From: an uncultured Enterobacterales bacterium
Lineage (GTDB): Bacteria; Myxococcota_A; UBA796; JAFGLY01
Length of the DNA: 64,000 nucleotides
Assembly: GCA_964512185.1 (NCBI GenBank)
Contig: CAZEJJ010000016.1
Location: 64 to 64,063 of the forward strand
Reading direction: 5' to 3'
Position numbers and translations under genes: made by a program. The notes beneath the pieces are model-generated. The model saw only the letters and a list, made by a program, of their open reading frames with translations, was not told the origin of the DNA and searched no databases. The number at the start of each line of letters is the position of its first letter. Positions within the stretch are counted from its first letter, which is position 1. Shown in pieces: positions 1,202-44,583 of this stretch.

Positions 1202-2906
1202 CCGCGCACCCCGCGTCGTGGGCCACGGTCCAGCCCGCTTCCTGGGCCAGCACGCGGTCGAAGCCCAGGGCACCAAGAGCCTCGGCCGCGCTCTGGGCGT
1301 CGAAGCCCGAGCCCTGGGAGCTGTCCAGCAGCACCAGCTGGCAGCGCGAGCCTCCGGGCCCCGCAGGCCTGGCGGCCGGAACGCCAGCGCCGCTGCGCCA
1401 CGCGGCCAGCCGGCGCTCCAGATCCTGCTGGGGCCCCGGGGGCGCGGGCCGGATGCCCGCCCGGATCTCGAAGTACCCGGACAGGGCCTGGGGCAGGTCG
1501 TCCCGGCGAGCGGGGCCCTCCAGGATCACCAGGGTGGGACTCGGCCGCAACCCGTGCAGGCGACCGAACAGCTCGTCGGAGAAGTAGATGGGCGTGGCGC
1601 TGGCCAGGCAGGACTCGTCCCACCATCGGCGCCCCTCGCGCAGCGACAGGGCACAGGCGCCCACCACCACGGCCGCCAGCACCAAGCGGCCGCCGCGAGA
1701 GGCCGCCCGCCGCCACAAGGTGGCGAACCCCACTCCAGCGAGCGTGGCCGCCAGGAACACCAGCAGCGTGGCCGCCAGGCGGCAGGCGCGCACCCGCCAG
1801 AGCACGGGCAGCTCCCACAGGGCCTGCGCCACCACCAGCGCATGCTCCGCGATCTGCTGCTGGGCCAGCACCAGCGCCAGCGCGCCGCCACCCAGCAGGA
1901 TGCGCTCCACCCGATGCGCGCGGGGCCCGAACACCAGGCCCACCGCTCCCAGCAGGCCCACCAGCCAGCACCAGGCCAGGCCCAGGCCGGGGCCCAGGCC
2001 AGCCCGCACCGCCAGCGGCTGGAAGAAGGAGCGCCCCACGTTGCTGTCCGCGGGATCCATGGCCAGCTGCTGCACCTGCAGCAGGCGCCACTCGGTGAAC
2101 AGCCAGGGCGACAGGATCAGGGCCGCTCCCAGGCCACCCAGGCAGAGTTTGGCCAGCAGGGAAGCCCGCCCGGGCTCCGCAGCGGTGGACGGCCCCAGCG
2201 CCAGCGCCGCCACCAGCCAGCCCAGCAGCACCAGGGCCAAGCCCAGGGTGTAGTACTGGTTGGCCAACACCAGCAGCGCCAGCCCCAGGGCCAGGGCCAC
2301 CACCCAGCCCAGGCGCGGGCTGCTGCGCAGCTGGACGAGCACCAGCAGCAGCAGGGGAACGAAGAAGAACATGCCGTAGTCCAGGCTGCGGCAGTGCAGC
2401 ACCGAGACCCAGAGGGGCGAGAAGGCGAACAGGAAGCCCGCCAGCAGCGCCCCGCCGCGGCTGCCCGACAGGCGCAGCGCCAGCGCCGCCACCGCCAGGC
2501 CGTTGGCCACCCACACCAGCAGCACCAGCAGGTTGTAGGCCCAGATGGACGGCAGCACCAGCTGGCCCAACCAGATCAGGGCCTTGGGGATGGGGTTGAA
2601 GTCCGCCCGCACCGGGTCCAGCGCGGCGCCCCGCAGCGCGTCCACCATGGTGCCCCAGGTGGCGCTCATGGTGGCCGAGAACTCCAGCGCCGAGCGCAGC
2701 TCGTCCAGCTTGTCCACCCCGGAGCAGACCAGCCAGCGGGTGTCCAGGGGATGGGTTCCGAACCAGGGCAGGAAGTCCCACTCGCTCAGCAAGGCGACAC
2801 ACAGGTACAGCCCGGCGGCCAGCAGGAGCGTGCTGGCCCACCAGGCCGCTCCGCCGGCGTGCTCCCGGGTGGTCAAGGGGGGATCCTCGCTGCAAATGTA
2901 TCCCAA
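1176..2906 (-). CDS. Polytopic membrane protein, GT-C/YfhO-like glycosyltransferase candidate
   Basis: About 10-12 hydrophobic segments, an acidic first loop (HPLDTRW), a GALLAGFLFAFSP motif and a soluble C-terminal domain; start uncertain. Confidence 0.55.
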   Translation of the reverse strand: MGYICSEDPPLTTREHAGGAAWWASTLLLAAGLYLCVALLSEWDFLPWFGTHPLDTRWLVCSGVDKLDELRSALEFSATMSATWGTMVDALRGAALDPVRADFNPIPKALIWLGQLVLPSIWAYNLLVLLVWVANGLAVAALALRLSGSRGGALLAGFLFAFSPLWVSVLHCRSLDYGMFFFVPLLLLVLVQLRSSPRLGWVVALALGLALLVLANQYYTLGLALVLLGWLVAALALGPSTAAEPGRASLLAKLCLGGLGAALILSPWLFTEWRLLQVQQLAMDPADSNVGRSFFQPLAVRAGLGPGLGLAWCWLVGLLGAVGLVFGPRAHRVERILLGGGALALVLAQQQIAEHALVVAQALWELPVLWRVRACRLAATLLVFLAATLAGVGFATLWRRAASRGGRLVLAAVVVGACALSLREGRRWWDESCLASATPIYFSDELFGRLHGLRPSPTLVILEGPARRDDLPQALSGYFEIRAGIRPAPPGPQQDLERRLAAWRSGAGVPAARPAGPGGSRCQLVLLDSSQGSGFDAQSAAEALGALGFDRVLAQEAGWTVAHDAGCAVSASASSR

Positions 2907-3013
2907 ACAGGGCCGCGACCGACACGCGCGCCGCCGGTCATGATCGAGCGGCTGTCAGGCCACGACGGGTCGCGATAGCCTGATGCCAAGCCACCCCGCT
3001 CCGAGGCGACACC

Positions 3014-4153
3014 CTGCCCCATCGCTCCCCAGCATCGCGCCCGTCGCTGCGCCGAAAGCTGCTCTTCACCCTGCTGATCAGCGGCGCGCTGCTGCTGGTG
3101 GTGGAGGGCCTGGCGCTGCTGCTGGAGCCTCGCTTCTTCCCGCTGGAGCGCAGCGTGCCGCCGCCAGCACCGGTGGTGAGCGCCGAATTCCCAACCATCC
3201 GCGCGGCCACCGAGCAGCTCCGCGCCGAGCACGCAGACTGGGGCACCAGCGTCCCCCTGGCGGAGGATCCGCAGGTGGGCTGGGCGCTCGCTCCTGGAGC
3301 CACCTTCAACAGCGGCGGGGTGGTGATCCGCAGCGACGAACGGGGCCTGCGCGTCAGCGATCTGCCCAGCTTCCAGCGCGGGGAGCTCCGCCTGCTCAGC
3401 CTGGGCGACTCGTCGGTCTTCGGCGTGGGGGTGCCCGCCGAGGGCGTGTTCCTGTCCATCGCAGCGGATCTGCTCTCCCGCTCCTGGAGCCGGCCGGTGG
3501 CGGCGGTCAACGGCGGTGTGCCGGGGCACAGCTCGGAACAGTCGCTCGCCCTGGCCCGACAGCTCGTGCCCGAGGTGCAGCCCCACTGGCTGGTGGTGGC
3601 CTGCCTGTGGAGCGATGTCTACGGCAAGCAGCACGAGTTCCTGGCGCAGGCCGGCACCTACTTCCCCGCCCTGCGCGGCAGCCTGCGCATGCTGGCCTCC
3701 TACCGCATCGCCCGGCGCCTGCTCGTGTCATGGCTGGAGAGCCGCAAGGTGGGCTGGATGGTGAGCCGCGACGACCTGGGCAGCCTGGACGGCGGGCTGC
3801 CCACGCGGGTCGCGCTGTCCAGCTACGTGCAGAACCTCAGGGCCATAGGGGAGCTGGCCCGCCAGCAGGGCTCCCGCGTGATCTTCGTGCAGCTGCCGGC
3901 TCCCATGGACCTGGACCGCGTGCCCCCGCCGCCCACTGTGCAGCGCTTCAGGGCTGCCATGGCCTCGGTGGCCGACGAGCTGGACGCCCCCTTGCTGGAC
4001 GGCCCCGAGCTCTTCGACCGCTCGGGCGCCACCATCGGCTTCTTCCAGGACAACGTGCATCCCACCAACGAGGGGCACCTACTGCTGGGGGTGGGCCTGG
4101 CCCACACCCTGCTCGAACAGGCGCCCCCGGCCGCTACTCCGCCGGCGCCGTGA
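3014..4153 (+). CDS. Membrane-anchored SGNH/GDSL hydrolase-family protein
   Basis: LGDSSVFG, NGGVPGHSS and DNVHP motifs; the N-terminal anchor RKLLFTLLISGALLLVVEG extends upstream of the GTG at 3098; the only earlier start after the stop at 2981 is CTG (3014 and later). Confidence 0.8.
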   Translation: MPHRSPASRPSLRRKLLFTLLISGALLLVVEGLALLLEPRFFPLERSVPPPAPVVSAEFPTIRAATEQLRAEHADWGTSVPLAEDPQVGWALAPGATFNSGGVVIRSDERGLRVSDLPSFQRGELRLLSLGDSSVFGVGVPAEGVFLSIAADLLSRSWSRPVAAVNGGVPGHSSEQSLALARQLVPEVQPHWLVVACLWSDVYGKQHEFLAQAGTYFPALRGSLRMLASYRIARRLLVSWLESRKVGWMVSRDDLGSLDGGLPTRVALSSYVQNLRAIGELARQQGSRVIFVQLPAPMDLDRVPPPPTVQRFRAAMASVADELDAPLLDGPELFDRSGATIGFFQDNVHPTNEGHLLLGVGLAHTLLEQAPPAATPPAP

Positions 4154-16774: not shown

Positions 16775-19366
16775 TCAGGAACCGCCGGCTGCCGGCAGCT
16801 CCCAGACCGCCAGCTCGCCGTCGTCGGCCACCCGCAGCAACCAGCTGTCCAGCAGCTCCTCCGTGGCGGGGACCAGCTCGGGGCCGGGTAGCAGATCCCG
16901 GTAGAGCATGACGTAGCGCAGGCCGGTGCCGCGCAGCGCGGCCACGTCCTGGTCGAGCCCGGCCGAGCCCAGCTGACGGCGGGGGCGATCCGAGCCCGAG
17001 GCCCAGGCCAGCTGGTTCAGGAAGGCGTTGGTCTCGAACCAGAACGAGTTGGTCAGCCTGCCCGGCATGCCGAAGGGTGGGCTGTTCACCAGGCTCATGC
17101 CCGCCTGCGCCGCCTGGATGGACACCAGGGCGTGGGTGGGCTCCGCCAGGGGCAGAGCCAGGGCGGGACCCGGCTCGAGCCGCTGGAGAACCGCGGCAGG
17201 CGGCCAGGGCTCGGCGCGAGGCAGGGCAAAGCGCAAGGCCACCAGCGAGTCCTCTCCCCCCTCAGCGTAGTAGGGCGCAGGGGGCCACTGCCGGAAGTTC
17301 AGGCCCGCGGCTCGCACCGCCAGCAGCCAGCCCAGCAGCAGACAGATCCCCAGCAGGCCCGGTCCCCACAGCCAACCCGCGCGCAGCGCCGGCCAGCGCG
17401 TGCGGAGGCGCTCCACCAGGCCGTGCAGGCCCAGGGCGAGAGGCACGGGCGCGATGCTGGCCGCCAACAACAGGAAACGGTTCACCTGCTTGAGCTGCTC
17501 GAAGCCGGGGATCAGCAGGAAGTCCAGGTAGTAGGGCAGCAGCAGCGCGGCCTCCTGGTCCCCCAGCCGCAGCATGGGCCCCAGGGCGAAGATCAGCAGG
17601 ATCAGCACGTCCAGGCTGGCCAGCACGGCGCGCCGACGAGCGGCCACCAGCAGCAGGCACAGCGCCACCGCCGGCCAGTACCAGGAGCGAGCGGGAAAGT
17701 ACTCGCCGGGTGTGATCAGGTCGCGCAGGGTGATGGAGCGAGCGGTGGCCGAGAGCAGGCGATCCTGTGCGCTGCCCATGGGTGGGTCCTTGCCCCCTCC
17801 CTGCCGGGGATCGTAGGCCTCCAGGAAGGCCTGGGCATCCTCGAGGCGCACCGGGTGCAGCAGGTCGACGCCGCTGTGGATCAGCCGGGTCTGATCCCCC
17901 TGGTAGGGCGTGCCCTCGGTGCCAGCCTGCAGCACGTACAATCCCGGGGCCAGCAGCAGCAGGGCCACCACCGCCACCACCGCGAAGCGCTGCAGCCTGC
18001 GCCAGGGGTGCCGCACGAGCAGGCGCGGCAGCACCAGCAGGGGGCAGGCGGCGGCCAGGTAGAGCCCGTAGTGCACCTGGCCGTAGAACACCGCCGCCAG
18101 CGCGGCCCCGGCCGCCACGGGCCAGCCCCAGCCGGACTCCCGATCGGCCCTGTGCAGGGCGAGGAAGAACAGCGGCACCAGGAACAGGCTGCTGCGATCC
18201 AGGCTCATGGTGTCCAGCTCGTCCAGCAACACCGGCGCCAGGGCGGCGCCCCCCGCCGCCAGCAGGGAGCAGGTGGGGCCAGCGCCCAGGCTCCGGGCCA
18301 GCGCCCAGCAGGTAAAACCCAGCAGGGCCACCGCCAGGCAGACTCCCAGGTTGTGCCCCACCACCGGTCCCGCCAGCCAGGTCAGGGCCGACGGCAGCAG
18401 GTAGCCCAACCATGAAGGACCCGTCACCAGCCAGGTGGAGCCCTCCGGCCAGGAGTAGTCGGGGCAGAGATCCGACAGCCGTGGGAGCGCATGGGCCATG
18501 CAGCCCAGCTGGGCGATGGAGTCCAGCGGATCGGTGAAACCCTCCCCCTCCAGCAGGATCGCGCCGTTGGGATCCCCCAGCACGGCGGAGACGGCCACCG
18601 CTCCCAGAGCCAGGCAGAAGAGGCCGACGCCCGCCAGCTGTCTCGCCGAGGGGAGCCTGGCCCGCTCCCGCCGGAGCACCAGGCCCACCAGCAGCGCCAA
18701 CAACAGCGCCGGCGGCAACAGGCCCCAGCGCACCAGCCGCTGCCGGCTGCCATCGGGCAGGCGCTCGGCCGCCGGCCCGACCACCACCAGGGAGGCGAAG
18801 CTCTGCCCCGGCTCGATGCGCTGCTCGTCGCTGCGAAGCGGGCCGGTGGCCCAGGCGCGCCAGGTACCCTCGGCCAGGGACAGCAGAGCCAGGTTGCCCG
18901 GGGACACTGGAGCCCAGGCGAAGCCGTTCTCCCGGTCCTGGGGCCGCTGGTCACCGCTCTGGTGCTGGTCGGTGCCTGGGCCCCCTTGGCGCCGGGCGGC
19001 CACCCCCGTGGCCTGCTCGGGCAGGATCACCATCACCAGGCGTGGAGAGGAAGAGATGGCGTCCAGCGCGTACTCGCGATCATGGCCAGGCACGTGCTCC
19101 AGGACCCGGTAGTGGCCCGGCGTCAGCCATAGCTCAGCGAGCTCCCCGCGCACCCGGCCCTGCCGGGGGTCCAGGTCCGGCCGCCAGCCGAACTGGCTGC
19201 CCTGCGCGCCATCGGCGGTGAGGAAGCGCGTGAGCTGCTGCCCCTGCTCGTCCTCGATCTCGATGATCGCCACGTGGCCCGCGGCGAGCGGAAAGGACCA
19301 ATCCAGTCGCTCGGCTCCCGCGGGGGAGAGCGCTGCCAGGAGCCACAGCCAGAGGAACCAGGTCAT
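16775..19366 (-). CDS. Large membrane protein: exported N-terminal domain plus GT-C/YfhO-like domain
   Basis: Signal-like N-terminus, ~200-aa soluble domain, then DPLDS/YSWPEG loop, multiple TM segments and a C-terminal soluble domain. Confidence 0.55.
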   Translation of the reverse strand: MTWFLWLWLLAALSPAGAERLDWSFPLAAGHVAIIEIEDEQGQQLTRFLTADGAQGSQFGWRPDLDPRQGRVRGELAELWLTPGHYRVLEHVPGHDREYALDAISSSPRLVMVILPEQATGVAARRQGGPGTDQHQSGDQRPQDRENGFAWAPVSPGNLALLSLAEGTWRAWATGPLRSDEQRIEPGQSFASLVVVGPAAERLPDGSRQRLVRWGLLPPALLLALLVGLVLRRERARLPSARQLAGVGLFCLALGAVAVSAVLGDPNGAILLEGEGFTDPLDSIAQLGCMAHALPRLSDLCPDYSWPEGSTWLVTGPSWLGYLLPSALTWLAGPVVGHNLGVCLAVALLGFTCWALARSLGAGPTCSLLAAGGAALAPVLLDELDTMSLDRSSLFLVPLFFLALHRADRESGWGWPVAAGAALAAVFYGQVHYGLYLAAACPLLVLPRLLVRHPWRRLQRFAVVAVVALLLLAPGLYVLQAGTEGTPYQGDQTRLIHSGVDLLHPVRLEDAQAFLEAYDPRQGGGKDPPMGSAQDRLLSATARSITLRDLITPGEYFPARSWYWPAVALCLLLVAARRRAVLASLDVLILLIFALGPMLRLGDQEAALLLPYYLDFLLIPGFEQLKQVNRFLLLAASIAPVPLALGLHGLVERLRTRWPALRAGWLWGPGLLGICLLLGWLLAVRAAGLNFRQWPPAPYYAEGGEDSLVALRFALPRAEPWPPAAVLQRLEPGPALALPLAEPTHALVSIQAAQAGMSLVNSPPFGMPGRLTNSFWFETNAFLNQLAWASGSDRPRRQLGSAGLDQDVAALRGTGLRYVMLYRDLLPGPELVPATEELLDSWLLRVADDGELAVWELPAAGGS

Positions 19367-19486
19367 GGGGGACAGCTACCTCAGGACCGAGGCCGGGCGC
19401 AAACACGGGGGCCCGAGGCCCGCCCACCGGACCGGGCACAGGCTGCCCCGCCGAGGCTGGCCCCGGAAGCGTTAAGACCGGGGACC

Positions 19487-21946
19487 ATGAATCGCCCCCT
19501 GACGCGTAGCCTGCTGCTGCTGGCCTTTCTCCTGTCGGGCTTCTCCACCCTGACCTACGAGATCGTCTGGGTGAAGCACCTGGTCTATCTCTTCGGCGTC
19601 ACCTACCACGCCATCACCACCGTCGTGACCGTGTTCATGGCGGGCCTGGCCTTCGGGGCGCTGGTCGCGGGGCGCAGCGTGGACCGCTCCCGTCGGCCTC
19701 TGGCCATCTACGCCGGCCTGGAGCTGCTCATCGCGGGCTGCGGGCTGGCATTCCCCGTGGCGCTGGCGGTGGTGAGCCAGGTCTACCACCAGGTCCACGA
19801 TGCCATGCAGGTGGGCTTCTTCACCCACACGTTGGTGCGCTTCACGCTGGCCTGTGCGCTGCTGCTGGTGCCCACCATCGCCATGGGTGCCACGCTGCCA
19901 GCCCTGGCCCGCTTCTTCGTCCTCTCCCGCGAGCAGATCGGGTTCGACATCGGGCGGCTGTATGGCGTCAACACCGTGGGAGCGGCGGCGGGCTGCGCCC
20001 TCACGGGCTTCCTGCTGCTGTACACCCTGGGCCTGCAGATCACCAACCTGCTGGCGGTCTCCCTGAACCTGCTGGCGGCCGGGCTGGCCCTCGCGCTGCA
20101 CCTCTGGGCCCGCCGCAGCGACCGGCCTGCCGCCGAGCCCAGCCCAGCCCCCGCCCGAACCCAGGCAGCAGAGGAGGGGAGCGCGCCCCGCGCCCCCTCC
20201 TGGCTGCTGGCCGCGTTCTTCCTGTCGGGTTTCACGGCGGTCGCCTACGAGCTGCTCTGGACCCGCATCGTCGCCCTGCTGCATCCCAACGCCCACACGC
20301 TGGTCTTCTCCCTGGTGCTCACCTTCTACCTGCTGGGCAACGGCCTGGGCAGCGCCCTGTACGGTCCCCGCCTGCTGGGCCGCCTGGCGCCGCTGCGCCT
20401 GTACGCGGCGGTGCAGCTCGTGGTGGCGGGCCTGGCGGCTCTGTCGGTGCCCGCCATCTTCGAGCTGCGCACCAGGCTGGGATGGCAGTGGTACGAAGCC
20501 TGGGATCCGGCTCGCGACATCCTGGATCTCTACCTCTCCCAGGCGGAGTTCCTGGTCATCGCGGCCGCGGTGGGCCTGCCCGCCCTGCTCTTCGGCCTCA
20601 CCTTCCCACTGGGCAACCGCCTGTACGTGCGGCGCTTCACCCTGCTGGGGAGCGGCGTCGGAGCCGTCTACTTCTTCGGCGCCGTCGGGGGGATCGCCGG
20701 CTCCTTCCTCACCGGCTTCGTGCTCATGCCCCTGCTGGGCGCCAAAGGCTGCATGTTCCTGCTGGCCCTGTTGAACGGCGTGCTCGGGGTCGCCATGCTG
20801 GCCATGGCCTCGAGACACTCCGCGCGTGCGCGCCTGGTGGGCTCACTGGTCGCCGTGGCCGCCCTTGCGGCCCTGCTGTACCGGGGGCACGGCTTCTACC
20901 CCACCTGGATCTTCCTCAACATCCCCACGGCTCACGAGGTGGTGTTCTACAAGGACGGCCGCAGCACCAGCGACGGTGTGGTCTGGGTCCAGCAGGGGGA
21001 GCAGCGGGTGAAGATGCTCTTCGCCAACGGCGAATTCGTCTCCGCCGGCGCGGTGGGGGTCTGGCTGCCCATCGCCCTGCATCCCGACCCCGAGAGGGTC
21101 CTGATCCTGGCCTTCGATACCGGGGCGTCCTCGGGCATGGCCTTGAGAGACCCGCGGGTGCAGGCAGTAGAAGCCGCCGACATCAGCGACGTGCAGGAGG
21201 AGATCGCCGCCCACTTCGTGGAGGCCAACGACGGCGTGATCGCGGACCCCCGCTTCCGGCTGGTGGCCAACGACGGGCGCAACCACCTGCTCACCAGCCG
21301 CAGGCGCTATCCCGTGATCTTCAACGGAGTCGCGGCCTACTCCGGCTATCTGGAGCTCAGCACACGAGAGTTCTTCGAGATCGCCAGAAGCCGGCTGGAA
21401 GACGGCGGCATCTTCGCCCACAAGATCCACCCCCACATGCTCACCCCCGAGGGCCTGCGGCGCGTGGTGGCCACCTTCCTCGAGGTCTTCCCCGACGCCA
21501 GCCTCTGGCAGGCCCGGGTGAGCTCTGTGCTGCTGCTGGTGGGCAGCAACGACGCCCAACCCCCTCGTCTGGACCAGCTGGACTCGAGCCGGCTGGGGCT
21601 GCACGGCCCCAGCTCCGTCGAAGCGGCGGCCTTGTTCTTGACGGACGCCGAGGGCCTGGCCGCCGTGGCGGCTGATGGCCGGATCCTGGTGGACGACCTG
21701 CCGCCACGCCTGGGCGACCTGCTCACCCTCATCGACACCGGCTCGGACTTCCTCGCCAAGAGCCCCCACCAGTCCGCCATGTCCAACTACGAGAGGGAGA
21801 TCAACGGCATCCTCTTCCGCCACGAGAGCCCCCCGGGCGACTTCTTCGATGGCATCACCGACGAAGAGCACGAGCGGATCACCGCCATCCGCGCCCGCAA
21901 CGCCCCCCCGGGCTACGGGCCTGAACCCGCGCCCGGTAGGCGGTAG
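19487..21946 (+). CDS. Fused membrane (MFS-like)/spermidine-synthase-like protein
   Basis: FLLSGFSTLTYEIVWVKHL and IGRLYGVNTVGA repeated twice; C-terminal SAM-binding-like domain with NDGRNHL and STREFFE. Confidence 0.85.
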   Translation: MNRPLTRSLLLLAFLLSGFSTLTYEIVWVKHLVYLFGVTYHAITTVVTVFMAGLAFGALVAGRSVDRSRRPLAIYAGLELLIAGCGLAFPVALAVVSQVYHQVHDAMQVGFFTHTLVRFTLACALLLVPTIAMGATLPALARFFVLSREQIGFDIGRLYGVNTVGAAAGCALTGFLLLYTLGLQITNLLAVSLNLLAAGLALALHLWARRSDRPAAEPSPAPARTQAAEEGSAPRAPSWLLAAFFLSGFTAVAYELLWTRIVALLHPNAHTLVFSLVLTFYLLGNGLGSALYGPRLLGRLAPLRLYAAVQLVVAGLAALSVPAIFELRTRLGWQWYEAWDPARDILDLYLSQAEFLVIAAAVGLPALLFGLTFPLGNRLYVRRFTLLGSGVGAVYFFGAVGGIAGSFLTGFVLMPLLGAKGCMFLLALLNGVLGVAMLAMASRHSARARLVGSLVAVAALAALLYRGHGFYPTWIFLNIPTAHEVVFYKDGRSTSDGVVWVQQGEQRVKMLFANGEFVSAGAVGVWLPIALHPDPERVLILAFDTGASSGMALRDPRVQAVEAADISDVQEEIAAHFVEANDGVIADPRFRLVANDGRNHLLTSRRRYPVIFNGVAAYSGYLELSTREFFEIARSRLEDGGIFAHKIHPHMLTPEGLRRVVATFLEVFPDASLWQARVSSVLLLVGSNDAQPPRLDQLDSSRLGLHGPSSVEAAALFLTDAEGLAAVAADGRILVDDLPPRLGDLLTLIDTGSDFLAKSPHQSAMSNYEREINGILFRHESPPGDFFDGITDEEHERITAIRARNAPPGYGPEPAPGRR

Positions 21947-21955
21947 CCAGGAGCT

Positions 21956-22190
21956 TAGTGCACGCGTTCGGAAGTTCCTGGCCACCCCCACAAGCCGCCC
22001 TCGCGTGCACTATGCGACCGCGCAGCGGTCGCCTGGGGGGCGCGCCGAAGGCGCGGTGGGGGGTGAGGCCCCCCGAAAAAGCCTGGTGCCCGTGTGCCGC
22101 GGAGCGGCATGTACGGTCGCTGGCGACCGTACGGCCGAAGTATCTGGCCGCCCAGCAGGGTGGGCAGATACTCCTGGGCACGGGCTCTAG
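21956..22190. mobile_element. Miniature non-coding repeat element family A, copy 1 (235 bp)
   Basis: Aligns without gaps to 37078-37312 with 8 substitutions counted by eye; bounded by TAG at both ends; several internal hairpins. Confidence 0.85.
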
Positions 22191-22936
22191 AAGATCGGCT
22201 CGGGAAAATCCAGCCCCAGCAGCTCGTAGTCGGTGCGCATGCGCGCCATGAGCGCCTGGCAGGCTGCGGAGTCGAGGTCTCCGGCCTGGGCGGCCTGCTC
22301 GATGTCCTGGGCGCTGGGGGGAGCCACCTTGTCGGCCATGTCCTGCTGCTGCGCCGCGATCTGCAGGCGCTCTGCGGTGACGAGGAGGAAGGCACGGATG
22401 ATGTCGGTGTCGCCGGCCTGCCCGCTGCCGCCCTCGGGCGCTGGGGGTGCCGGACCAGCAGGGCCGGTGCCACACTCTGATGACCTGGAGAGATCCGGAA
22501 AGGGCATGTTGAACTGCTGGTAGCCGGCCTCCAGCTTCTCGAGCACCGGCCTGGCGGAGTCGCTGTCCAGGCTGCCACCCGCCACCGCAGCCTCTAGCTC
22601 GGCTTCGGTGGGCAGGATCAGCTCCGGATCCAGCCCGAAGTCGCGCGCGGCACCCAGCAGGGGCTCGATGGTGGCGTCGAGCACCGCTCGCAGCGAACAG
22701 CTACCTTCCGTGGACGGGCCCGAGCTGGGGCTGGAGCTGCCGCTGGTCGGGGTGCTGGTTGCTGGACTCGAGGATGGGAGGTCGTCGAAGCCAGCCACAG
22801 AGGGCTCACCACCGGCGAAGCCGGGATCCGGTTCCCGCACCCACAGGACCACCAGCATGATGAGGTTCAGCACCAGCAGTGCCGCCAGCGCCCCCAGAAG
22901 CCGAAGCAGCAGGAGGTCGTAGCGGGAGGGGCGCAT
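22187..22936 (-). CDS. Single-TM protein with a tandem-duplicated C-terminal domain; putative anti-sigma factor
   Basis: ATG 11 nt after the ECF stop; TM segment LLGALAALLVLNLIMLVVLWV; Ser/Pro linker; two similar ~65-aa repeats ending FP. Confidence 0.6.
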   Translation of the reverse strand: MRPSRYDLLLLRLLGALAALLVLNLIMLVVLWVREPDPGFAGGEPSVAGFDDLPSSSPATSTPTSGSSSPSSGPSTEGSCSLRAVLDATIEPLLGAARDFGLDPELILPTEAELEAAVAGGSLDSDSARPVLEKLEAGYQQFNMPFPDLSRSSECGTGPAGPAPPAPEGGSGQAGDTDIIRAFLLVTAERLQIAAQQQDMADKVAPPSAQDIEQAAQAGDLDSAACQALMARMRTDYELLGLDFPEPIF

Positions 22937-22946
22937 GCGGTGGGCC

Positions 22947-23510
22947 TCAGGATTCCTGGTGGGGCGGCAGCAGCAGGGGGCGCAGCCGCTGGCGGACACG
23001 GGTGAGCCGCGTGCGTACAGCTCCCGGGGACATGCCCAGCTCTGCGGAGATCTCAGGACCGGTCCAGCCCTCACCCTCCGCGAGGATCAGGACCGCCCTG
23101 TCCAGGGGAGGCAGCTCACGCAGCGCTCGCTCCAGGGCCTCGGACAGCTCCGCCCGAGCGGCTTCGATCTCGGGGCTGGGTGCCTCGGAGGCCAGGGGGG
23201 TCTCGGTGGTGTGCAGCGCCGGATCGTTCTTGCGTCCGCGCCTCATGCGGTAGCAGGCGTTGGTGACCATGCGCACCAGCCAGCCCTCCAGAGAGCCATC
23301 CCCTCGGAAGGATCCCAGGTGGCTGCCTGCGGAGAGCAGGGCGTCCTGAACGGCATCCTGGGCGTCTTCTTCGTTGCGGCAACGGTGGCGTGCCACCGCG
23401 ATGAGCCGCTCACCGAAGCAGCGGGTGATGCGATCCAGGGCCTGCATGTCCTCGGCCTGGACGAGCCTCACGAGGACCTTGCCGTCGCAGATGCTGGTGT
23501 CGGTCGCCAT
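22947..23510 (-). CDS. ECF (sigma-70 family group 4) RNA polymerase sigma factor
   Basis: DAQDAVQDALL, FRGDGSLEGWLVRMVTNAC, region 4 EISAELGMSPGAVRTRLTRVR. Confidence 0.9.
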   Translation of the reverse strand: MATDTSICDGKVLVRLVQAEDMQALDRITRCFGERLIAVARHRCRNEEDAQDAVQDALLSAGSHLGSFRGDGSLEGWLVRMVTNACYRMRRGRKNDPALHTTETPLASEAPSPEIEAARAELSEALERALRELPPLDRAVLILAEGEGWTGPEISAELGMSPGAVRTRLTRVRQRLRPLLLPPHQES

Positions 23511-36165: not shown

Positions 36166-37080
36166 ATGACCACCCCCGAAGCACTGGTGTACGACGACAG
36201 CTCCTCGGCCGATCCCTCCATCGGCGTCATCGAGACCATCTCCCGCTCCCTCACGGAAGCGGGCGTCGAGCCTACTCCCCTGATCTACGAAGAAGCCCTG
36301 GAGCTGGCCCGCAACGGCCTGCTGGGCGCCTCGCGTGACCGCCTGCGCATGCTGCTCTGCCTCGACCCGGAGAACGGCGACGCGCGGCTGCTGCTGGCCA
36401 AGGTCTTCGTTGGTCAGCAGCGCTGGTCCGACGCCCTGTCCCAGCTGGACGCAGCCCGGGCCCTCGGGGTCCAGGTGCCCTCCTCCCTGCAGGCCAAAGT
36501 GGAGAGCGGGCTGGAGACCGAGCGCAACGCCCTGGAGCTGCAGTCCCAGCGCGCGGCCACCCGCGAGCAGGCCGAGCTCAAGGCCCTGCGCTCCGAGGCG
36601 CGCCGCCTGCGCACCGACAACACCCGCCTGGCGCGCGACCGCAAGCAGCTGCGCGGCCGGATCACCACCTGGTCCGCCTCCACGGCGGTGCTGGCCGGTG
36701 TCAGCCTTGTGCTGCTGGTCTTCCTGTGGCTCGGTCCCAGCGAGACCGACGCGGTGGCCACCAACACCGAGATCGAGCAGGCCCCGCCGGCGGTGGCCCA
36801 GCTGGAGGCCGCCGAGGAGCCCGTGCTGTCCGAGGCCGCGCTCGAGGTAGACCAGCCGGCAGAGGTGCTGGAGATCCTCAGAGAGGAGCCCGCCCCCGGG
36901 ATCGCGCCTCCCACCAGCGGCCCGCGCACCCACGAGGTGGTCAGCGGCGACAGCCTCTACGAGATCGCCCGCGCCTACTACGGCGACGGCAGCAAGTGGA
37001 AGGCCATCAAGGACGCCAACCCCGAGAAGATCGGCCGCCGCAACCGGCTGTCGCTGGGCACCAAGCTGACCATCCCCTAG
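36166..37080 (+). CDS. TPR / coiled-coil / TM / C-terminal LysM protein
   Basis: LysM HEVVSGDSLYEIARAYYGDGSKWKAIKDAN; TPR LLCLDPENGDARLLLAK; one TM segment. Confidence 0.85.
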   Translation: MTTPEALVYDDSSSADPSIGVIETISRSLTEAGVEPTPLIYEEALELARNGLLGASRDRLRMLLCLDPENGDARLLLAKVFVGQQRWSDALSQLDAARALGVQVPSSLQAKVESGLETERNALELQSQRAATREQAELKALRSEARRLRTDNTRLARDRKQLRGRITTWSASTAVLAGVSLVLLVFLWLGPSETDAVATNTEIEQAPPAVAQLEAAEEPVLSEAALEVDQPAEVLEILREEPAPGIAPPTSGPRTHEVVSGDSLYEIARAYYGDGSKWKAIKDANPEKIGRRNRLSLGTKLTIP

Positions 37081-37312
37081 TGCACGCGCTCGGAAGTTCC
37101 CAGCCACCCCCACAAGCCACCCTCGCGTGCACTATGCGACCGCGCAGCGGTCGCCTGGGGGGCGCGCCGAAGGCGCGGTGGGGGGTGAGGCCCCCCGAAA
37201 AAGCCTGGTGCCCGTGTGCCGCGGAGCGGCATGTACGGTCGCTGGCGACCGTACGGCCGAAGTATCTGGCCGTCCAGCAGGGTGGGTAGATACTTCTGGG
37301 CACGGGCGCTAG
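37078..37312. mobile_element. Miniature non-coding repeat element family A, copy 2 (235 bp)
   Basis: Near-identical to 21956-22190, same orientation, flanked by CTAG on both sides. Confidence 0.85.
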
Positions 37313-37340: not shown

Positions 37341-38657
37341 TCAGTAGCTGATCTTGCCTTCCTTCTTGAGGCGCTTCATGCGCTCGAGCCGGCGCTTGGA
37401 CCCCTTGTGCCTGCTCTCCTTCCAGGCCCGCTTGTAGTAGTCCTCGGCGGTGCTGTACTCCCGCTTGCGGTAGTGGAAGCCCGCCAGCCGGTACAGGCTG
37501 GTGCCCCGGTACTCCGGGATGAGGTCGTAGCTCAGGTACAGGTTCATCTCCTGGATGGCCTGGTCCATGCGCCGGCTGCGTGAGTAGACCAGCGCGCGGT
37601 AGTAGTGCACACGCTCGTTGTCAGGCGCGTCCACGAGGATCTCCTCGCAGATCTCCTCGGACCTGCTGAAGCGCCGCAGGTAGATGTAGATGCGGGCCAG
37701 CACCAGGTTGTTGATCACGTTGTCGGGGTAGGTGCGGTAGCCCCGCAGCGAAGACCCCAGCGCTCGCTTGAGATCCCGCTCTTCGAGGTAGGTGAACACC
37801 AGCGCCAGCGTGGTGGGGGCGCTGACGAAGATGCCGTGGGTCTCCACGTACTTCATCTGGGCGATGCCCTCGGCCCGCTTGTCTTCGAAGTCGGGCAGCA
37901 CCTTGCTGCTCAGGGTGACCACGGATCGCCAGTAGTTGTAGATACCATCGGCCAGCACCAGGTCCGGGAAGTCGGGGGCGGCTTCCTTGGCCCGCTCGAT
38001 GGAGCGCAGGGCCTCGTAGGCCTTGGTGAGGGCTGACACGAAGTTGAGCTTGCGGGTCTCGTGGATGGCGTCCACCCCGATCACGCCGGTGAGCAGAAAG
38101 TTGTCCCAGGCGTCGTTGCCCGGCATGTCCACCGCTTCGTCCACCCTGCTGCGCGCCTCGCGCCACTGCAGCTCCCACTGCTGCTCGTAGTCGAAGTCGA
38201 AGTTCTCGAGCATCAGTGCCTGGTACACCAGACCCCGCCCCACCGGACCGATGGCCGACCTGGGCCACTTGCTGTCCATCAGGCCCCAGTGGTCCATCGC
38301 CCCCTTGTAGTCCCGCAGATAGACCGCCTCGAGCCCCTGCCGTGCGTCGTGCACGAACTCGGGCTCGAGCCCGAGCAGCTCGGCGCCGCGGTACACCACG
38401 TTGGGGTAGGGCCGGTTGGCCATCTCCATCAGGTCCTCGCGGGTGATGGGCGACGAGCTCTCTTCAGGGAGCCCCTCGATGGCTGGCACCGGGTTCCGGG
38501 TGACGGCGCTCTCTCCCAGGTCCTCCCGGGCCTGCTCCTCTTCGCTGGGCTCTCCCTCCGAGCCGCCGGAGCTGCGCGAGGTCTGCGCCCAGGCCTGGTG
38601 GGTGGGCCAGACCAGCAGCAGGCTGGCGGCGAACATGGCTCCTAGGGTGGACCTCAT
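37341..38657 (-). CDS. Exported TPR-repeat protein
   Basis: Signal peptide (LLVWPTHQAWA); TPRs (ILVDAPDNERVHYYRALVY). Confidence 0.75.
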   Translation of the reverse strand: MRSTLGAMFAASLLLVWPTHQAWAQTSRSSGGSEGEPSEEEQAREDLGESAVTRNPVPAIEGLPEESSSPITREDLMEMANRPYPNVVYRGAELLGLEPEFVHDARQGLEAVYLRDYKGAMDHWGLMDSKWPRSAIGPVGRGLVYQALMLENFDFDYEQQWELQWREARSRVDEAVDMPGNDAWDNFLLTGVIGVDAIHETRKLNFVSALTKAYEALRSIERAKEAAPDFPDLVLADGIYNYWRSVVTLSSKVLPDFEDKRAEGIAQMKYVETHGIFVSAPTTLALVFTYLEERDLKRALGSSLRGYRTYPDNVINNLVLARIYIYLRRFSRSEEICEEILVDAPDNERVHYYRALVYSRSRRMDQAIQEMNLYLSYDLIPEYRGTSLYRLAGFHYRKREYSTAEDYYKRAWKESRHKGSKRRLERMKRLKKEGKISY

Positions 38658-39660: not shown

Positions 39661-41034
39661 CTACTTCCCGATGCAGAAGCGGGAGAAGACCTCGTCCAGC
39701 ACCTCTTCCCGCACGCCGCTGCCGCCCATGGCGTTCAGCCGCGACAGGGCCGCCAGGGTCTCCTCCGCGGCCACCGCCACCCCCGCCTCGCCGAGCAGGG
39801 CCTGGCAGGCCGCCGACAGCCCCTCGGCGGCCGCCAGCAGCAGCTGGCGCTGGCGCTGGCTGGCGATGACCGCGGCGCTCGCTCCAGGCTCTTCGCCAGC
39901 CAGCCCGGCTGCGATGGCTGCGCGCAGTGCGGGCAGACCGCTGCCATCCAGGGCGCAGGTGGACAGCAGCGCCTGGCCTCCGATGCGAGACACCGCGCCG
40001 AGCCGATCGGCGTGGTTTCCCACCACCACTCGGGGCCGGCCCTCGGTCCGCTCCAGCACCCGCTGGCTCTCGTGCAGCTCGGGGAGGTGGGCAGGCAGGA
40101 CCACCACCACCAGGTCCACCTGGCCCATCAGCTCGTCGCGCAGGGACAGCCCTTCGCGCTCGAGCCCGCTCGCATCCAGGTTCTCGCCGGCGGTATCCAT
40201 CAGGCAGATCGGGAGACCCTCCACGTCCACCTGGGCTTCCAGCAGGTCGCGGGTGGTGCCCGGCTCGGCGCTCACCAGGGCTCGGTGCTGATCCAGCAAG
40301 GCGTTGAACAAACTGCTCTTTCCAGCATTGACCGGACCCAGCAGCGCCACCCGCGCACCCTGCACCTGCACCCGGGCTCGCCGGAAGCTGCGGGCCACGC
40401 CCCTCAGCTCCACCTCGAGCTCGCGCAGGCGCGCGGCCAGGGCGCTGTCGTCCTGCACGCCCCCCAGCGGGTCCAGCTGATCGGGGAAGTCCAGCCGGGC
40501 CTCGAGCTCGGCGGCGCAGGCGAGCAGCCGCTCCTCCATGCCCTGCACCCAGGACCCAAGCTTGCCGCGCAGGCCGCTGGCGGCCGCCACCAGGCCCTGG
40601 GGAGAGCGGGCCTCGATGGCCTGCAGCACAGCCTCGGCTCGCAGCAGATCCAACCGACCATTCTGCCAGGCTCGCCTGGTGAATTCGCCGGGGAGGGCCG
40701 GCCGGGCCCCGGCGGCCACGCAGGCCGCCAGCAGCCGCTCCACCAGCAGCGGGTTGCCATGACAGGAGATCTCGGCGCTGTCCTCACCCGTGTAGGAGCG
40801 CGGCCCGGGCATCCAGGTCAGCAGACCCTGGTCCACCGGGCCGCTGGCATCGCGGATCGACACCAGCACCGCACGCCTGGCGGTGGGCAGGCCCCCGGGA
40901 CGGGGGCAGACCTCGGCCAGGATCTGGCCCACAGCGGGCCCCGACAGCCGCACCACCGCGATGGCGCTGCGCCCCCAGGGCGTGGCGCAGGCGACGATGG
41001 TGTCCACGGCCTGGGGGATCCGCTGGCGGATCAC
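39661..41034 (-). CDS. mnmE: tRNA modification GTPase MnmE
   Basis: DTIVACATP, AVVRLSG, YTGEDSAEISCHG, PGEFTRRA, GPVNAGKSSLFNAL, PGTTRD, FSRFCIGK; start approximate. Confidence 0.92.
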   Translation of the reverse strand: MIRQRIPQAVDTIVACATPWGRSAIAVVRLSGPAVGQILAEVCPRPGGLPTARRAVLVSIRDASGPVDQGLLTWMPGPRSYTGEDSAEISCHGNPLLVERLLAACVAAGARPALPGEFTRRAWQNGRLDLLRAEAVLQAIEARSPQGLVAAASGLRGKLGSWVQGMEERLLACAAELEARLDFPDQLDPLGGVQDDSALAARLRELEVELRGVARSFRRARVQVQGARVALLGPVNAGKSSLFNALLDQHRALVSAEPGTTRDLLEAQVDVEGLPICLMDTAGENLDASGLEREGLSLRDELMGQVDLVVVVLPAHLPELHESQRVLERTEGRPRVVVGNHADRLGAVSRIGGQALLSTCALDGSGLPALRAAIAAGLAGEEPGASAAVIASQRQRQLLLAAAEGLSAACQALLGEAGVAVAAEETLAALSRLNAMGGSGVREEVLDEVFSRFCIGK

Positions 41035-41041
41035 CTCGGGA

Positions 41042-42001
41042 TCAAGCCTCGGCAGTGGTTTCCGGCGCCGCTCCACCCCCATCGGGGAGGATGCGCACCT
41101 GCTTGTGGGAGCCATCTCCCACCGACTCGGTGACCACGCCTTCGTAGTCGGCCACCACCATGTGCACGATGCGCCGGGCGTAGCTGTTGAGCTCCTTGCG
41201 GATCAGCTCAGCCTCGCCGGTCTTCTTGACACGTCGGGCCACCCGGTGGGCCAGGCGCTCGATGTCCTGCTGGCGGGTGCGGTCGCGCTTCTCGTCCCTT
41301 CCGCGATCGTCGTCACGGCCACGATCCCGGTCACGCCCACGGTCGCGGTCGCGGTCGCGGTCGCGGTCGCGGCTGCGATGGTCTCCTCGGTCGCGGTCGC
41401 GTCCCCGACCACGGTCGCGGTCTCGATCGCGGCCACGGCCACGATCCCGGTCACGGTCTCGATCGCGGCCACGGCCACGATCCCGGTCACGCCCACGGTC
41501 GCGGTCGCGGTCGCGGTCGCGGTCATCGCGCCGATTGTCCGCCACGTCGATCTTGTAGCTGAAATCGGGGTTGGCCTTGCCCACCACCTCTTGCAGCAGG
41601 GTGTGAACGGCTTCCAGCGTGACACCCCGTCGGCCCACCAGGTGCCCACCACGCTCGGTGATCACCTTGAGCGTGATGGTGCCATCGAGGATCCGGGCCT
41701 GGACCTGGGCCTCGAAGTCCATCTTCTTCAGCAGCTCGGCCAGCCAGGCCCGCGCTGCCTCGGTGGCCTCGATGACGGCCGGATCGCTGGGCCACACGAA
41801 GACCTTGACAGTGTCCATGCCCTGGACGGCGCCGGTCTTGGCGCTCCGGAAATGGGAGATGTCGAGCTTGTGCTCCACCATGGAGGGCTCCAGGTCCAGG
41901 GCCTTGGCGCCCGCATGGATGGCCTCTACCAGGGAGTCACCCTCGCCGGTGACCGCATCGGGGTGGGGCAGTGCTGGGGTGTTGGTCGCTTCTTCCGTCA
42001 T
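41042..42001 (-). CDS. jag: Jag/EloR (KhpB) RNA-binding protein with KH and R3H domains and an Arg-Asp repeat insert
   Basis: GHLVGRRGVTLEAV (KH), LNSYARRIVH (R3H); position between yidC and mnmE. Confidence 0.85.
   Translation of the reverse strand: MTEEATNTPALPHPDAVTGEGDSLVEAIHAGAKALDLEPSMVEHKLDISHFRSAKTGAVQGMDTVKVFVWPSDPAVIEATEAARAWLAELLKKMDFEAQVQARILDGTITLKVITERGGHLVGRRGVTLEAVHTLLQEVVGKANPDFSYKIDVADNRRDDRDRDRDRDRGRDRDRGRGRDRDRDRDRGRGRDRDRDRGRGRDRDRGDHRSRDRDRDRDRDRGRDRDRGRDDDRGRDEKRDRTRQQDIERLAHRVARRVKKTGEAELIRKELNSYARRIVHMVVADYEGVVTESVGDGSHKQVRILPDGGGAAPETTAEA
41275..41540 (-). repeat. (RD)n/RG low-complexity coding repeat within jag
   Basis: Runs of cggtcg and duplicated blocks encoding DRDRDRDRGRDRDRGRG... 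Confidence 0.9.
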
Positions 42002-43794
42002 CGCTTTCTCCTCGCCTTCTTCTTCTTGGATTCCTTGGTACGCTCGACAACCGGAGCCTTCTCCGCCTCTTTGGAGGGCTTCTTCACGATGGGGTCGCCG
42101 TACTTCTTGCGGATGTAGAGCTGCTGCAGGATGGTCAGCACGCTGTTGATGGTGATGTAGAGGCACAGGCCTGAGGGCAGGCTGAACATGATGAAGATGA
42201 AGATGAGCGGCATGAGCCGGAACATCTTCTGCTGCATGGGATCCACGCCGGCCATGGGGGTCATCCACTGCTGACCCAGCATGAGCACGCCCACGAGGAT
42301 GGGCAGCACGGCGAAGGGATCCTGGGCGGAGAGGTCTTGCCAGAGCAGGAACTCGCTGCGGTACAGATCGACGCTGTAGAGCAAGGTGGAGTAGAGCGCG
42401 AACCAGATGGGCATCTGGATGACCATGGGCAGGCAGCCGCTCATGGGGTTGACGCCGTGCTCCTTGAACAGGCGCATCTGCTCCTGGGCCTGCATCTCGC
42501 GATCGTCCTTGTACTTCTCCTTGAGCTCGGTCATGAGCGGCTGGATCTTCTTCATCTCCTGCTGGGAGCGGAAGGACTTCTGCGTGAGCGGGAAGAACAC
42601 GCCCTTGACCAGCAGGGTGAGCACGATGATGGCCAGACCCCAGTTGCCCACGAAGCCGTGCACGCTCACCAGCAGCCAGTAGAGGATCTTGGCGAAGAAG
42701 CCGAAGAAACCGAACTGCACCGATTTTTCGAGATCGTGGCCCAGCTCCTTGAGCTGCGCGTGCCCCTTGGGCCCGGCGTAGAGCATGAACTCCAGCTCGC
42801 GGGATCCCCCGGGCGCCAGGGTCTCGCGGTCGGAGACCAGGAAGACCCCGCCGGCGTCTTCACCCAGGGCGCTCGCGGTGAGCTGACCCCACCCCTGCTC
42901 CAAGGGAACGAGGGCGGTGAGGAAATAGCGGCTGGCGATGCCCAGCCAGGAGACCTGGCCCGGGCGCAGCACGGGACCCTTCTTCAGATCGTCGAGATCG
43001 TCCTCCACCTCGAGATCGCCCACCACCACCGAGGCGGGACGGGCGAAGTTGGAGAAGCGCGTGTACTTGCCCTCGAAGGTGTCGCCCACCCCGACCCACA
43101 GGCGCCCGGACATGGGCTGCTCGGTGGTGTTGGAGAAGCGCACGCTGAAGCGGCCCTGGTAGGGCTCCGGGCCAGCGCGGTAGTGCTTGGTGATCTTGAG
43201 GCCGCTGGGAGCGACGCGCTCGAAGAGGGCCTCGGTGTCGCTGACGGAGACCTGCACGTAGTCGCCGTCCTGGAAGCCGGAGTCCATACCGCCGGCGAGG
43301 CCCAGCGTTGCATCGCTGGTGAGCAATCGCTCCGGCAGGACGCCACCGTTATAGGGCTTCCAGCCGCCCTCAGCCTCGCCCTTGACCTTGGCAAAGAGCC
43401 AGCTGTGCAGGGCATTCACGTCGTAGGGGCCGGGGTGCTGGGGGAGCTGCAGCTGACGGAGCACACCGCCACGGCTGCTCCACTCCGCTGTCCAGTCCGA
43501 GGAGACCAGCGGGTAGGTCTCCTCGGGCAGGCTGCCGGTGGCCACGGCTGCCGGGGCCGCCGGAGGGAGCTCGGGGCTGGCAGCGATCTGGCTCGTGGCG
43601 AGCTCGGTGGGGCCGGTGGACGGGAGGGGCGCTTCGGAGCCGGCCGCCACTTGTTCGCTGGCGCCATCCTGGGGAAGCACCATCTGGTCGGATCCACCCT
43701 GCGGAGCGATCCAGGCGGACCAGAGCCAGAAGACCGCGAGGCTCAGCACGATGGCCAGAATGGCTCTCTTCTCTGTGCCGTCGTTCTCGTTCAC
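41998..43794 (-). CDS. yidC: Membrane protein insertase YidC
   Basis: GNWGLAIIVLTLLVK, QPLMTELKEKY, GVNPMSGCLP, QMPIWFALY, LPSGLCLY. Confidence 0.95.
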   Translation of the reverse strand: MNENDGTEKRAILAIVLSLAVFWLWSAWIAPQGGSDQMVLPQDGASEQVAAGSEAPLPSTGPTELATSQIAASPELPPAAPAAVATGSLPEETYPLVSSDWTAEWSSRGGVLRQLQLPQHPGPYDVNALHSWLFAKVKGEAEGGWKPYNGGVLPERLLTSDATLGLAGGMDSGFQDGDYVQVSVSDTEALFERVAPSGLKITKHYRAGPEPYQGRFSVRFSNTTEQPMSGRLWVGVGDTFEGKYTRFSNFARPASVVVGDLEVEDDLDDLKKGPVLRPGQVSWLGIASRYFLTALVPLEQGWGQLTASALGEDAGGVFLVSDRETLAPGGSRELEFMLYAGPKGHAQLKELGHDLEKSVQFGFFGFFAKILYWLLVSVHGFVGNWGLAIIVLTLLVKGVFFPLTQKSFRSQQEMKKIQPLMTELKEKYKDDREMQAQEQMRLFKEHGVNPMSGCLPMVIQMPIWFALYSTLLYSVDLYRSEFLLWQDLSAQDPFAVLPILVGVLMLGQQWMTPMAGVDPMQQKMFRLMPLIFIFIMFSLPSGLCLYITINSVLTILQQLYIRKKYGDPIVKKPSKEAEKAPVVERTKESKKKKARRKR

Positions 43795-44072
43795 TTGGGA
43801 TCCTCTCCCGCCGGTGCGGTCGATGCGCCTTGCTCGTCCAGCGCTTCTATCGCCCTGGGCGCTGGCGGCACGGGGTCGTAACCGCCTGGATGGAACGGGT
43901 GGCAGCGAAGGATGCGTCGGGCGCCCAGGAAAGTGCCGCGCAGGGCGCCGTGAATATGCAGCGCCTGGAGAGTGTAATCAGAACAGCTCGGATGGAAACG
44001 GCAAACTGGAGGCATCCAGGATCGAGTCAGGATCTGGTAGAGGCGAACCAGCGCCGTGAGGAGCCGCCTCAT
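43791..44072 (-). CDS. yidD: Membrane protein insertion efficiency factor YidD
   Basis: CRFHPSCSDY, RILRCHPFHPGGYDPVP. Confidence 0.95.
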   Translation of the reverse strand: MRRLLTALVRLYQILTRSWMPPVCRFHPSCSDYTLQALHIHGALRGTFLGARRILRCHPFHPGGYDPVPPAPRAIEALDEQGASTAPAGEDPK

Positions 44073-44539
44073 GGCCTCCTCCTGCCGATGCGCTGCAGCG
44101 CCTTCTCCACCTGCTCCTCCAGGCTGCGTGCGTCCGCTCGAGCCGCCGAGGGACGCGCGATGAAGACCAGGTCCCAGCAACCCGCCAGCTCGCGACGGTG
44201 ACGCCGCATGGCCTCTCGCAGCCAGCGCTTGACCCGGTTCCGCACCACCGCGTTGCCCACCTTGCGGCTCACCGCCATGCCGAAGCGGCTCGCGGTGCTG
44301 GTGCCGGGCGCGAAGACCACCACCAGATGCGCGAAGCGCAGCCGCCGGCCCGTGGACTGGACGCGGCGGTAGTCGCGCGATGCGCGGAGCCGGAGGTGTC
44401 GGGGGAAGCCGTGCTGACCCGGAGCTAACGCCCCTTGGACGGTACCGTGACCACCAGACGCTGGCGGCCCTTGGTCCGACGACGGGCGATTATCTTCCGA
44501 CCCCCGGCGGTCCTCATCCTGGCGCGGAAGCCGTGACAA
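44069..44539 (-). CDS. rnpA: Ribonuclease P protein component (start codon problematic)
   Basis: [32 protein letters not shown]; the only in-frame NTG upstream of the core is TTG 44539, inside rpmH. Confidence 0.9.
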
Positions 44540-44583
44540 CGCTTACGCTTGATCCTGCTGGGCTGATAGGTCCTCTTACTCAA
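44425..44583 (-). CDS. rpmH: 50S ribosomal protein L34
   Basis: TTG start; [42 protein letters not shown]. Confidence 0.95.

Follow-up and report, generated by a model that had tools for sequence, protein, structure and literature searches.

The window, by which we mean the whole stretch of 64,000 nucleotides that was analysed, carries the same hairpin-rich sequence at two loci, each between convergent genes, and the question is what this sequence is and how it came to lie there. The original prediction had taken it for a non-autonomous mobile element or a structured RNA. The two copies, at 21956–22190 and 37078–37312, are each 235 nt long and align without gaps with 8 mismatches, all of which are confined to the outer ∼45 nt on either side. 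Copy 1 begins with TTAG and ends with CTAG; copy 2 has CTAG at both ends. The alignment thus bears out the length, the 8 differences and the ends that had been described. Copy 1 lies between a fused MFS/spermidine-synthase-like gene (19274–21946, plus strand) and a gene of unknown function (22187–23074, minus strand), and copy 2 between a TPR/LysM gene (36166–37080, plus strand) and a TPR gene (37341–38657, minus strand). As predicted for both copies, one terminal TAG is the stop codon of a neighbour: CTA at 22187–22189 is, when reverse-complemented, the stop of the minus-strand gene beside copy 1, and TAG at 37078–37080 is the stop of the LysM gene beside copy 2. The sequence of the window is matched by a 70-kb JGI contig and a 107-kb ENA scaffold, and adjoins the dnaA/dnaN/gyrB region. 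The chromosomal origin neighbourhood occupies approximately 41000–52000, where mnmE, yidC, yidD and rnpA (minus strand) are followed by dnaA (44910–46301), dnaN and gyrB; both copies have the same orientation and are 8–23 kb to one side of dnaA. The ∼9 kb by which two contigs, L007 and L008, extend beyond the window contained no further copy.

To estimate the size of the family, public contigs of four marine metagenome runs, X1–X4, were aligned to copy 1. The flank depth was ∼21 in runs X1 and X2, and the depth summed over the element was 2000–4000. Overall, the depth of the element was ∼50–175 times that of the flank, varying by run, which corresponds to as many genome-equivalents; these values derive from the depth of collapsed contigs in metagenomes, and some of the copies could belong to related genomes. 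The family is therefore present in high copy number in the source metagenomes, and is not limited to the two copies of the original prediction. In run X1, 117 contigs matched the element, and contigs break inside it; the window's own flank contigs stop at 21997 and resume at 22143. At least 17 X1 contigs lead from unrelated flanks into the left end, with approximately single-copy depth (9–29), and 12 lead from differing flanks into the right end. Depth dips at the centre because centre variants break contigs. Solo left or right arms, which this dip had suggested, were rejected, as no junctions occur at 22012/13.

Five copies, in unrelated flanks, were available in full sequence: the two in the window and three further copies, referred to by their contigs as L010, L011 and L002. 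L010 is 96% identical; L011, in which ∼35 nt of the interior are deleted, is 77% identical. L002 comes from a different metagenome project; this modular variant has the left terminus and centre in common and a different left loop and right arm, and its type of element also occurs in run X6. The L010 and L011 copies were obtained with a chimeric query of other reading frames, which matched ORFs P0001 (L010:1700–2431) and P0002 (L011:10001–10762). Both are spurious public gene calls read across copies, and neither has GC3 bias. The called ORF in L011 runs on past the element because the terminal CTAG became CTGG there. The 96–97% identity among copies points to a probable recent burst.

Other searches yielded no members of the family. 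A protein search with the translation of the element's minus-strand frame 0 gave no match, two scans of viral contigs with the end motifs gave none, and in a plasmid BLAST the whole element had no match and the left end had chance matches only (E about 7). The sole match of a scan of the genome collection for the GTACGGTCGC..GCGACCGTAC hairpin, L001, was rejected as an unrelated assembly palindrome. In an unrelated JGI metagenome, a 66-nt palindromic unit just upstream of a gene start (L003:156–221) has identical 11-nt termini (TAGTGCACGCG...CGCGTGCACTA) around a different 44-nt core. We did not count it as a member, since by a rough estimate one or two such pattern matches are expected by chance; it could be a chance occurrence or a distant mini-relative. 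Finally, a run X6 contig that aligns to 37076–37110 shows that a ∼92% identical relative has the left terminus of the family, then a different loop and ...GCGCGTGCACTG-CGGACGCG. This unit, which does not run into the usual centre, could be a shortened or solitary form in the genome of the relative.

The limits of the element were defined by the points at which family members part. Contigs of the family diverge from copy 1 at 21956–58 and at 22184–22191, which delimits a mobile body of 230 bp on the plus strand (21958–22187, GTGCAC...GGGCTC). The body is flanked by a TA on either side, at 21956–21957 and 22188–22189, the left one being placed by the five-copy alignment, the contig junctions and the empty site described below. 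The body ends in C22187, and this base and the right TA make up the TAG stop of gene 22187–23074. By alignment, the body of copy 2 is likewise 230 bp long (37080–37309, plus strand), with TA at 37078–37079 and 37310–37311; here, the left TA and G37080, the first base of the body, form the stop of the LysM gene.

With these limits, the termini proved to be more alike than had been thought. The original prediction described the terminal inverted repeats as weak (8/11). When anchored just after the TA, they extend over ∼30 bp with 20–23 matches of 30. More specifically, the left repeat of copy 1 (21958–21987, plus strand) matches the reverse complement of the right repeat (22158–22187, minus strand) at 20 of 30 positions (p = 1.7e-5). 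The same comparison of the first and last 30 nt gave 21/30 in copy 2 and 23/30 in a third copy (p ≤ 2e-5 for these three), and over all five copies the matches were 20, 21, 23, 17 and 21, with p from 1e-3 to 7e-8. In these tests, the chance match rate was 0.29 and the body was taken to start just after the TA. The inverted repeats are real, ∼30 bp long and imperfect.

One of the loci is unoccupied in a relative whose flanking genes are ∼92% identical and which is represented in two other studies, by runs X5 and X6. Each of these runs contains one contig that connects 21933 with 22188 through 10 letters (GAACGAGCGT), skipping 21934–22187. The empty site reads ...G AAC GAG CGT TAG AAGATC. The plus-strand gene of the relative ends at that TAG, and its minus-strand gene ends with TAA, the reverse complement of the overlapping TTA. 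The TTAG of the relative thus holds both convergent stops, which indicates that the pre-insertion site was T-TA-G with overlapping stop codons. Compared with this site, the window has the 230-bp body plus one TA, the very stretch that is missing from the relative's contigs. In the occupied state, the stop of the minus-strand gene is TAG, made of TA and the element's last base, and an in-frame TAG at 21956–21958, made of TA and the element's first base, stops the plus-strand gene four codons earlier. Insertion may affect the neighbouring genes. The right boundary of the empty site is exact; the left flank has diverged, with 10 nt in the relative versus 22 nt in the window, and the left boundary of copy 1 therefore rests on the multi-copy junctions. 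At the locus of copy 2, the contig of the relative covers the LysM gene as far as the stop codon, and its next 301 nt resemble neither the element nor the right flank in the window. As the far side is unaligned, this arrangement is consistent with absence of the element and is not a clean empty site.

Overall, the many copies with different flanks, the inverted repeats, the TA duplication and the empty site of the relative support the first half of the original prediction, that of a non-autonomous mobile element. Its authors had named two copies only, with no empty sites, as the outcome that would speak against it; many copies and an empty site were found. The element is shorter than ∼500 bp and has no coding capacity, carries inverted repeats, is associated with a target duplication, occurs at many unrelated loci and is polymorphic for presence and absence, all of which are features of MITEs.

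To characterize the target, we compared the junctions of all copies. In the five-copy alignment, the left junction reads YAG-TGCACGCG and the right one GGGCAC-TRG. TA is present on both sides in three of the five copies (copy 1, copy 2 and L002); the flanks are CA/TA in L010 and CA/TG in L011. With the next base outwards included, four copies read C-TA-G and copy 1 reads T-TA-G. At the left junctions of run X1, TA occurs in 11 of 17, with CA and TG in three each; the right junctions of that run comprise eight CTAG, two CTGG and two CTAT, such that TA occurs in 10 of 12. A single CTAA right junction was found in run X4. In all four runs, X1–X4, the left TA is preceded by a consensus C, and a G follows the right TA in 8 of 10 TA junctions. 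The combination of TTAG and CTAG at copy 1, together with the CTAT and CTAA junctions, indicates a 2-bp duplication of TA with a preference for CTAG. A 4-bp duplication fits poorly because copy 1 and the CTAT and CTAA junctions would each need extra mutations. Approximately a third of the junctions have CA or TG in place of TA, which we attribute to probable decay of the TA after insertion.

Together, these data suggest that the sequence is probably a 230-bp non-coding MITE that is moved by a DDE transposase encoded elsewhere and that targets TA, preferably within CTAG, in the manner of the IS630/Tc1-mariner group. Insertion at TA with a 2-bp duplication and the preference for CTAG are both features of that group. 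The match is based on the ∼30-bp inverted repeats, the 2-bp TA duplication, the bias for CTAG, the many recent copies and the empty site. An IS630/Tc1-mariner-type transposase, acting in trans by cut-and-paste, is the most likely agent; its family was assigned from the features of target and duplication alone, because no autonomous element or transposase with matching ends was found in the window or the retrieved loci, and viral contigs and plasmids yielded none either. As the original prediction had noted, the ORFs of the window include no transposase domain. According to the work of Tenzen and Ohtsubo (1991), as it is cited in PMC6811581 and PMC2170065, IS630 of Shigella sonnei inserts at the TA of CTAG and duplicates the TA. 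ISY100 is excised by double-strand cuts, and transposes by cut-and-paste with TA duplication (PMC2170065). The element resembles both in having its target TA inside 5′-CTAG-3′ and a 2-bp TA duplication (PMC6811581, PMC2170065). However, IS630 and ISY100 are autonomous elements of 1.0–1.2 kb with a DDE transposase, whereas the 230-bp element has no coding capacity.

The main rival is a MITE moved by a transposase of the IS5 family (IS427, IS5 or PIF/Harbinger-like), with a CTAG/YTAR target and a duplication of 3–4 bp. A precedent for such an element is MITEPsy1 of Pseudomonas syringae, which is thought to derive from the IS5 family, targets CTAG or YTAA and generates a 4-nt duplication (PMC3189936). 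The 230-bp element shares its preference for CTAG targets (PMC3189936), and CTAG occurs at both ends of copy 2 and L002 and at most junctions. By contrast, MITEPsy1 is 100 bp long with GGAAGG-type ends, and the data for the 230-bp element favour a duplication of 2 bp. The TTAG to the left of copy 1, the CTAG to its right and the TTAG of its empty site are explained by TA duplication without an extra mutation, which a 4-bp duplication would require. In addition, some right junctions are CTAT or CTAA, with TA alone in common, and the inverted repeats are symmetric only when begun right after the TA. An IS5-type transposase is thus an unlikely source of the movement.

Under the IS630/Tc1-mariner reading, the following mechanism can be proposed. 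The element would be a derivative of a DNA transposon that has retained only the ends recognized by the transposase and a hairpin-rich interior. A DDE transposase from elsewhere would bind both ends and excise the element, which would then insert at a TA dinucleotide, preferably in CTAG, where a 2-nt staggered cut would lead to duplication of the TA. As the body begins with G and ends with C, the resulting junctions, (C)TA-G...C-TA(G), would rebuild a TAG stop for a gene ending there on either strand. Finally, since a considerable part of the CTAG sites at which insertion is tolerable would be stop codons, often those of convergent genes, copies would accumulate at such sites.

The composition of the window is in keeping with the last of these steps. 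CTAG occurs 18 times in the 64 kb versus 183 occurrences expected from base composition and 88 from a Markov model, a depletion of 5–10 times in a genome of 69% GC. Three of the 18 sites are element junctions; among the other 15, five are on stop codons, approximately five are intergenic and the remainder lie in ORFs or at their edges. The surviving sites are concentrated at gene ends. TAG is the stop of 15 of the 37 called genes. Four of the five sequenced copies are on a stop codon: both copies in the window, L010 (gene 2428–3852, minus strand) and L002 (an aminotransferase gene, 253–1452, minus strand). Copies are often on stops because CTAG is rare, a third of the free sites are stops and intragenic insertions would be selected away; special recognition of stop codons is not needed as an explanation. 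The decayed flanks CCAG and CTGG are the products expected if CTAG were converted genome-wide. More speculatively, these flank variants may reflect whatever process depletes CTAG throughout the genome.

A bolder proposal is that of a domesticated, stop-codon-seeking family. Its G...C termini at TA/CTAG would let the element colonise overlapping convergent stops and rebuild TAG on both strands, while the conserved central hairpins and co-varying termini would serve the host as a spacer, an insulator or an RNA 3′-end structure. We regard this as doubtful.

The interior of the element bears on any role beyond transposition. All of the interior hairpins listed in the original prediction were found. 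On the left, CGCGTGCACTA at 22002–22012 (minus strand) is an exact inverted copy of the left terminus and pairs with 21956–21966, closing a 57-nt stem-loop; this helix is invariant in all five copies. The central cluster (22014–22081, plus strand) consists of three GC hairpins, at 22014–22032, 22041–22055 and 22058–22074, followed by an A-run, and is the best-conserved region between the two subfamilies. On the right, CTGGTGCCCGTG at 22083–22094 (plus strand) is an internal inverted copy of the right terminus, and its pairing with 22177–22187 closes a 108-nt multi-hairpin arm. This terminus and its internal copy change together in the L002 variant, in two double changes. Within the arm, the subterminal hairpin GAAGTATCTG...CAGATACTCC (22137–22174, plus strand) has a compensatory T-A to C-G change in L010. 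Two further double changes of this hairpin in L002 were read directly from the five-copy alignment, and are not counted in the covariation statistics because the second alignment gaps the 5′ arm of L002. The centre is better conserved than the loops beside the inverted repeats; such a pattern is not usual in MITEs and may point to a further constraint.

These features raise the alternative that the sequence is mainly a structured RNA or a cis-acting 3′-end element, such as a terminator, an insulator or an mRNA stabiliser, that would have spread through duplication or been kept for this role, with mobility being secondary. The copies are in the 3′ regions of convergent genes, the central hairpins are the part best conserved between subfamilies, and the right hairpin and the long right-arm stem contain compensatory changes. 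Moreover, the element folds strongly compared with shuffled sequences, with z values of −4.9 and −5.2. However, these two values are from opposite strands, which fold equally well. Covariation among the five sequences, three of which are nearly identical, was not significant, with 43 and 32 of 500 shuffles reaching the observed values; a selected structure based on covariation was accordingly dropped, five copies being too thin a basis. Rfam 15 had no match in the whole window, and a permissive scan of the element (E ≤ 10) gave chance-level matches only, with E > 1. Neither strand of the element contains a terminator, that is, a hairpin plus U-run (T-run), or a consensus promoter. Three small, uninformative metatranscriptomes of the same study contained no contig on the locus. 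Finally, transposition alone accounts for the inverted repeats, the TA flanks and the empty site. The structured RNA of the original prediction thus gained no positive support, and we consider an element of this kind to be improbable, although an RNA-level function may exist as a secondary role. As for protein, no reading frame of the element has the GC3 bias of the genome (0.67–0.77 versus ∼0.9 in genes), which indicates that the element is non-coding.

Mobilisation as single-stranded DNA by an HUH enzyme (an IS200/IS605 PATE, or REP/BIME with RAYT) or by an IS110-type recombinase, which the original prediction had raised in place of a DDE MITE, is very improbable: the many hairpins, the pairing of the termini with internal inverted copies and the fixed tetranucleotide CTAG at the ends would suit such systems, but the ∼30-bp terminal inverted repeats, the TA on both sides and the palindromic CTAG-type target are hallmarks of DDE cut-and-paste, and no transposase, Y1/HUH or DEDD gene occurs in the window or in any retrieved locus. 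To our knowledge, IS200/IS605, REP/RAYT and IS110 elements have neither inverted repeats nor target duplications. IS200/IS605 PATEs insert 3′ of a fixed tetra- or pentanucleotide, and their left and right cleavage sites differ, whereas the inverted repeats here are symmetric with TA on both sides. REPs are processed by RAYT enzymes of the HUH type; a search of the DNA at hand for a Y1 transposase gave none, and the hairpins of the element all differ in sequence, with no repeated REP units. REPs are repeated palindromes of 20–40 nt with a conserved GTAG head (see PMC2817692). Like REP/BIME sequences, the family is high-copy, extragenic, hairpin-rich and often between convergent genes. Unlike them, it has a single, fixed unit of 230 bp that carries inverted repeats and is flanked by TA, where REP/BIME sequences have neither inverted repeats nor a duplication.

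As an IS630/Tc1-mariner-like MITE, the element belongs to a well-known kind, and constitutes a new family of MITEs, from a marine high-GC bacterium that is uncultured. Its closest parallel is RUP, a pneumococcal MITE attributed to IS630-Spn1 (PMC2229807). Like RUP and other MITEs derived from IS630, the element is short and non-coding, is present at ∼100 copies per genome, has inverted repeats, inserts at TA and is presumably mobilised in trans (PMC2229807). It nevertheless has no sequence similarity to RUP, is 230 bp long versus 107 bp, is very GC-rich with several hairpins, and has an internal inverted copy of each terminus. Furthermore, RUP shares its ends with IS630-Spn1, whereas the 230-bp element is known without a cognate IS. 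Another parallel is provided by the Correia/NEMIS elements of Neisseria, which are also high-copy intergenic MITEs with inverted repeats and a TA target, and whose transcripts can fold into stem-loops (PMC2229807). Correia elements differ in having IHF sites, promoters and RNase III cutting, features that are not known for the 230-bp element, and are unrelated in sequence and host.

The family matters in several respects, none of which changes the current understanding of transposition. As public contigs break inside the element, it explains fragmented assemblies of this marine lineage, and in annotation its repeats flag spurious ORF calls, such as P0001 and P0002. It also provides a natural example of how target specificity and genome composition steer a transposon onto stops and convergent gene ends, with the terminal bases restoring the stops. 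The family may be of use as a strain marker, and the transposase, if found, might be a TA/CTAG-specific tool from a high-GC host.

Several other repeats were noted in and near the window. At L007:18690–18860, ∼6.7–6.9 kb past the right end of the window, two tandem copies of a ∼70-nt unit (CGTACGGTCCACCGCCTGCGGCGGCGGCTTTCGCCCCAATGCTKCGCATTGTCGCT) represent a different repeat family; they lie downstream of two convergent genes, in a gap of 400 nt. For this region, the JGI contig ends at the repeat, which suggests that it is another assembly-breaking repeat. Within the window, 41238–41539 contains an array with an 18-nt period, detected as nine overlapping 128-nt matches. In a related contig, L004, the array region corresponds to a 319-aa minus-strand gene with no Pfam match, and the array probably encodes a hexapeptide tandem repeat. 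The further gene content of the window includes Ser/Thr kinases, many TPR proteins and a Tad pilus; as an impression, this content and the 69% GC may point to a Myxococcota-like host. NCBIfam and Pfam yielded no match specific to a lineage. Two 72%-identical stretches, 59545–59625 and 60301–60381, are parts of small called genes that flank a prepilin peptidase gene (PF01478:Peptidase_A24, as annotated in L007), and would encode small hydrophobic N-termini containing ...GQTMVEYVLVVAVIG.... By their sequence, they look like Flp-type pilin paralogues of a Tad pilus cluster that comprises RcpC, a secretin, a CpaF-like ATPase and TadB/C.
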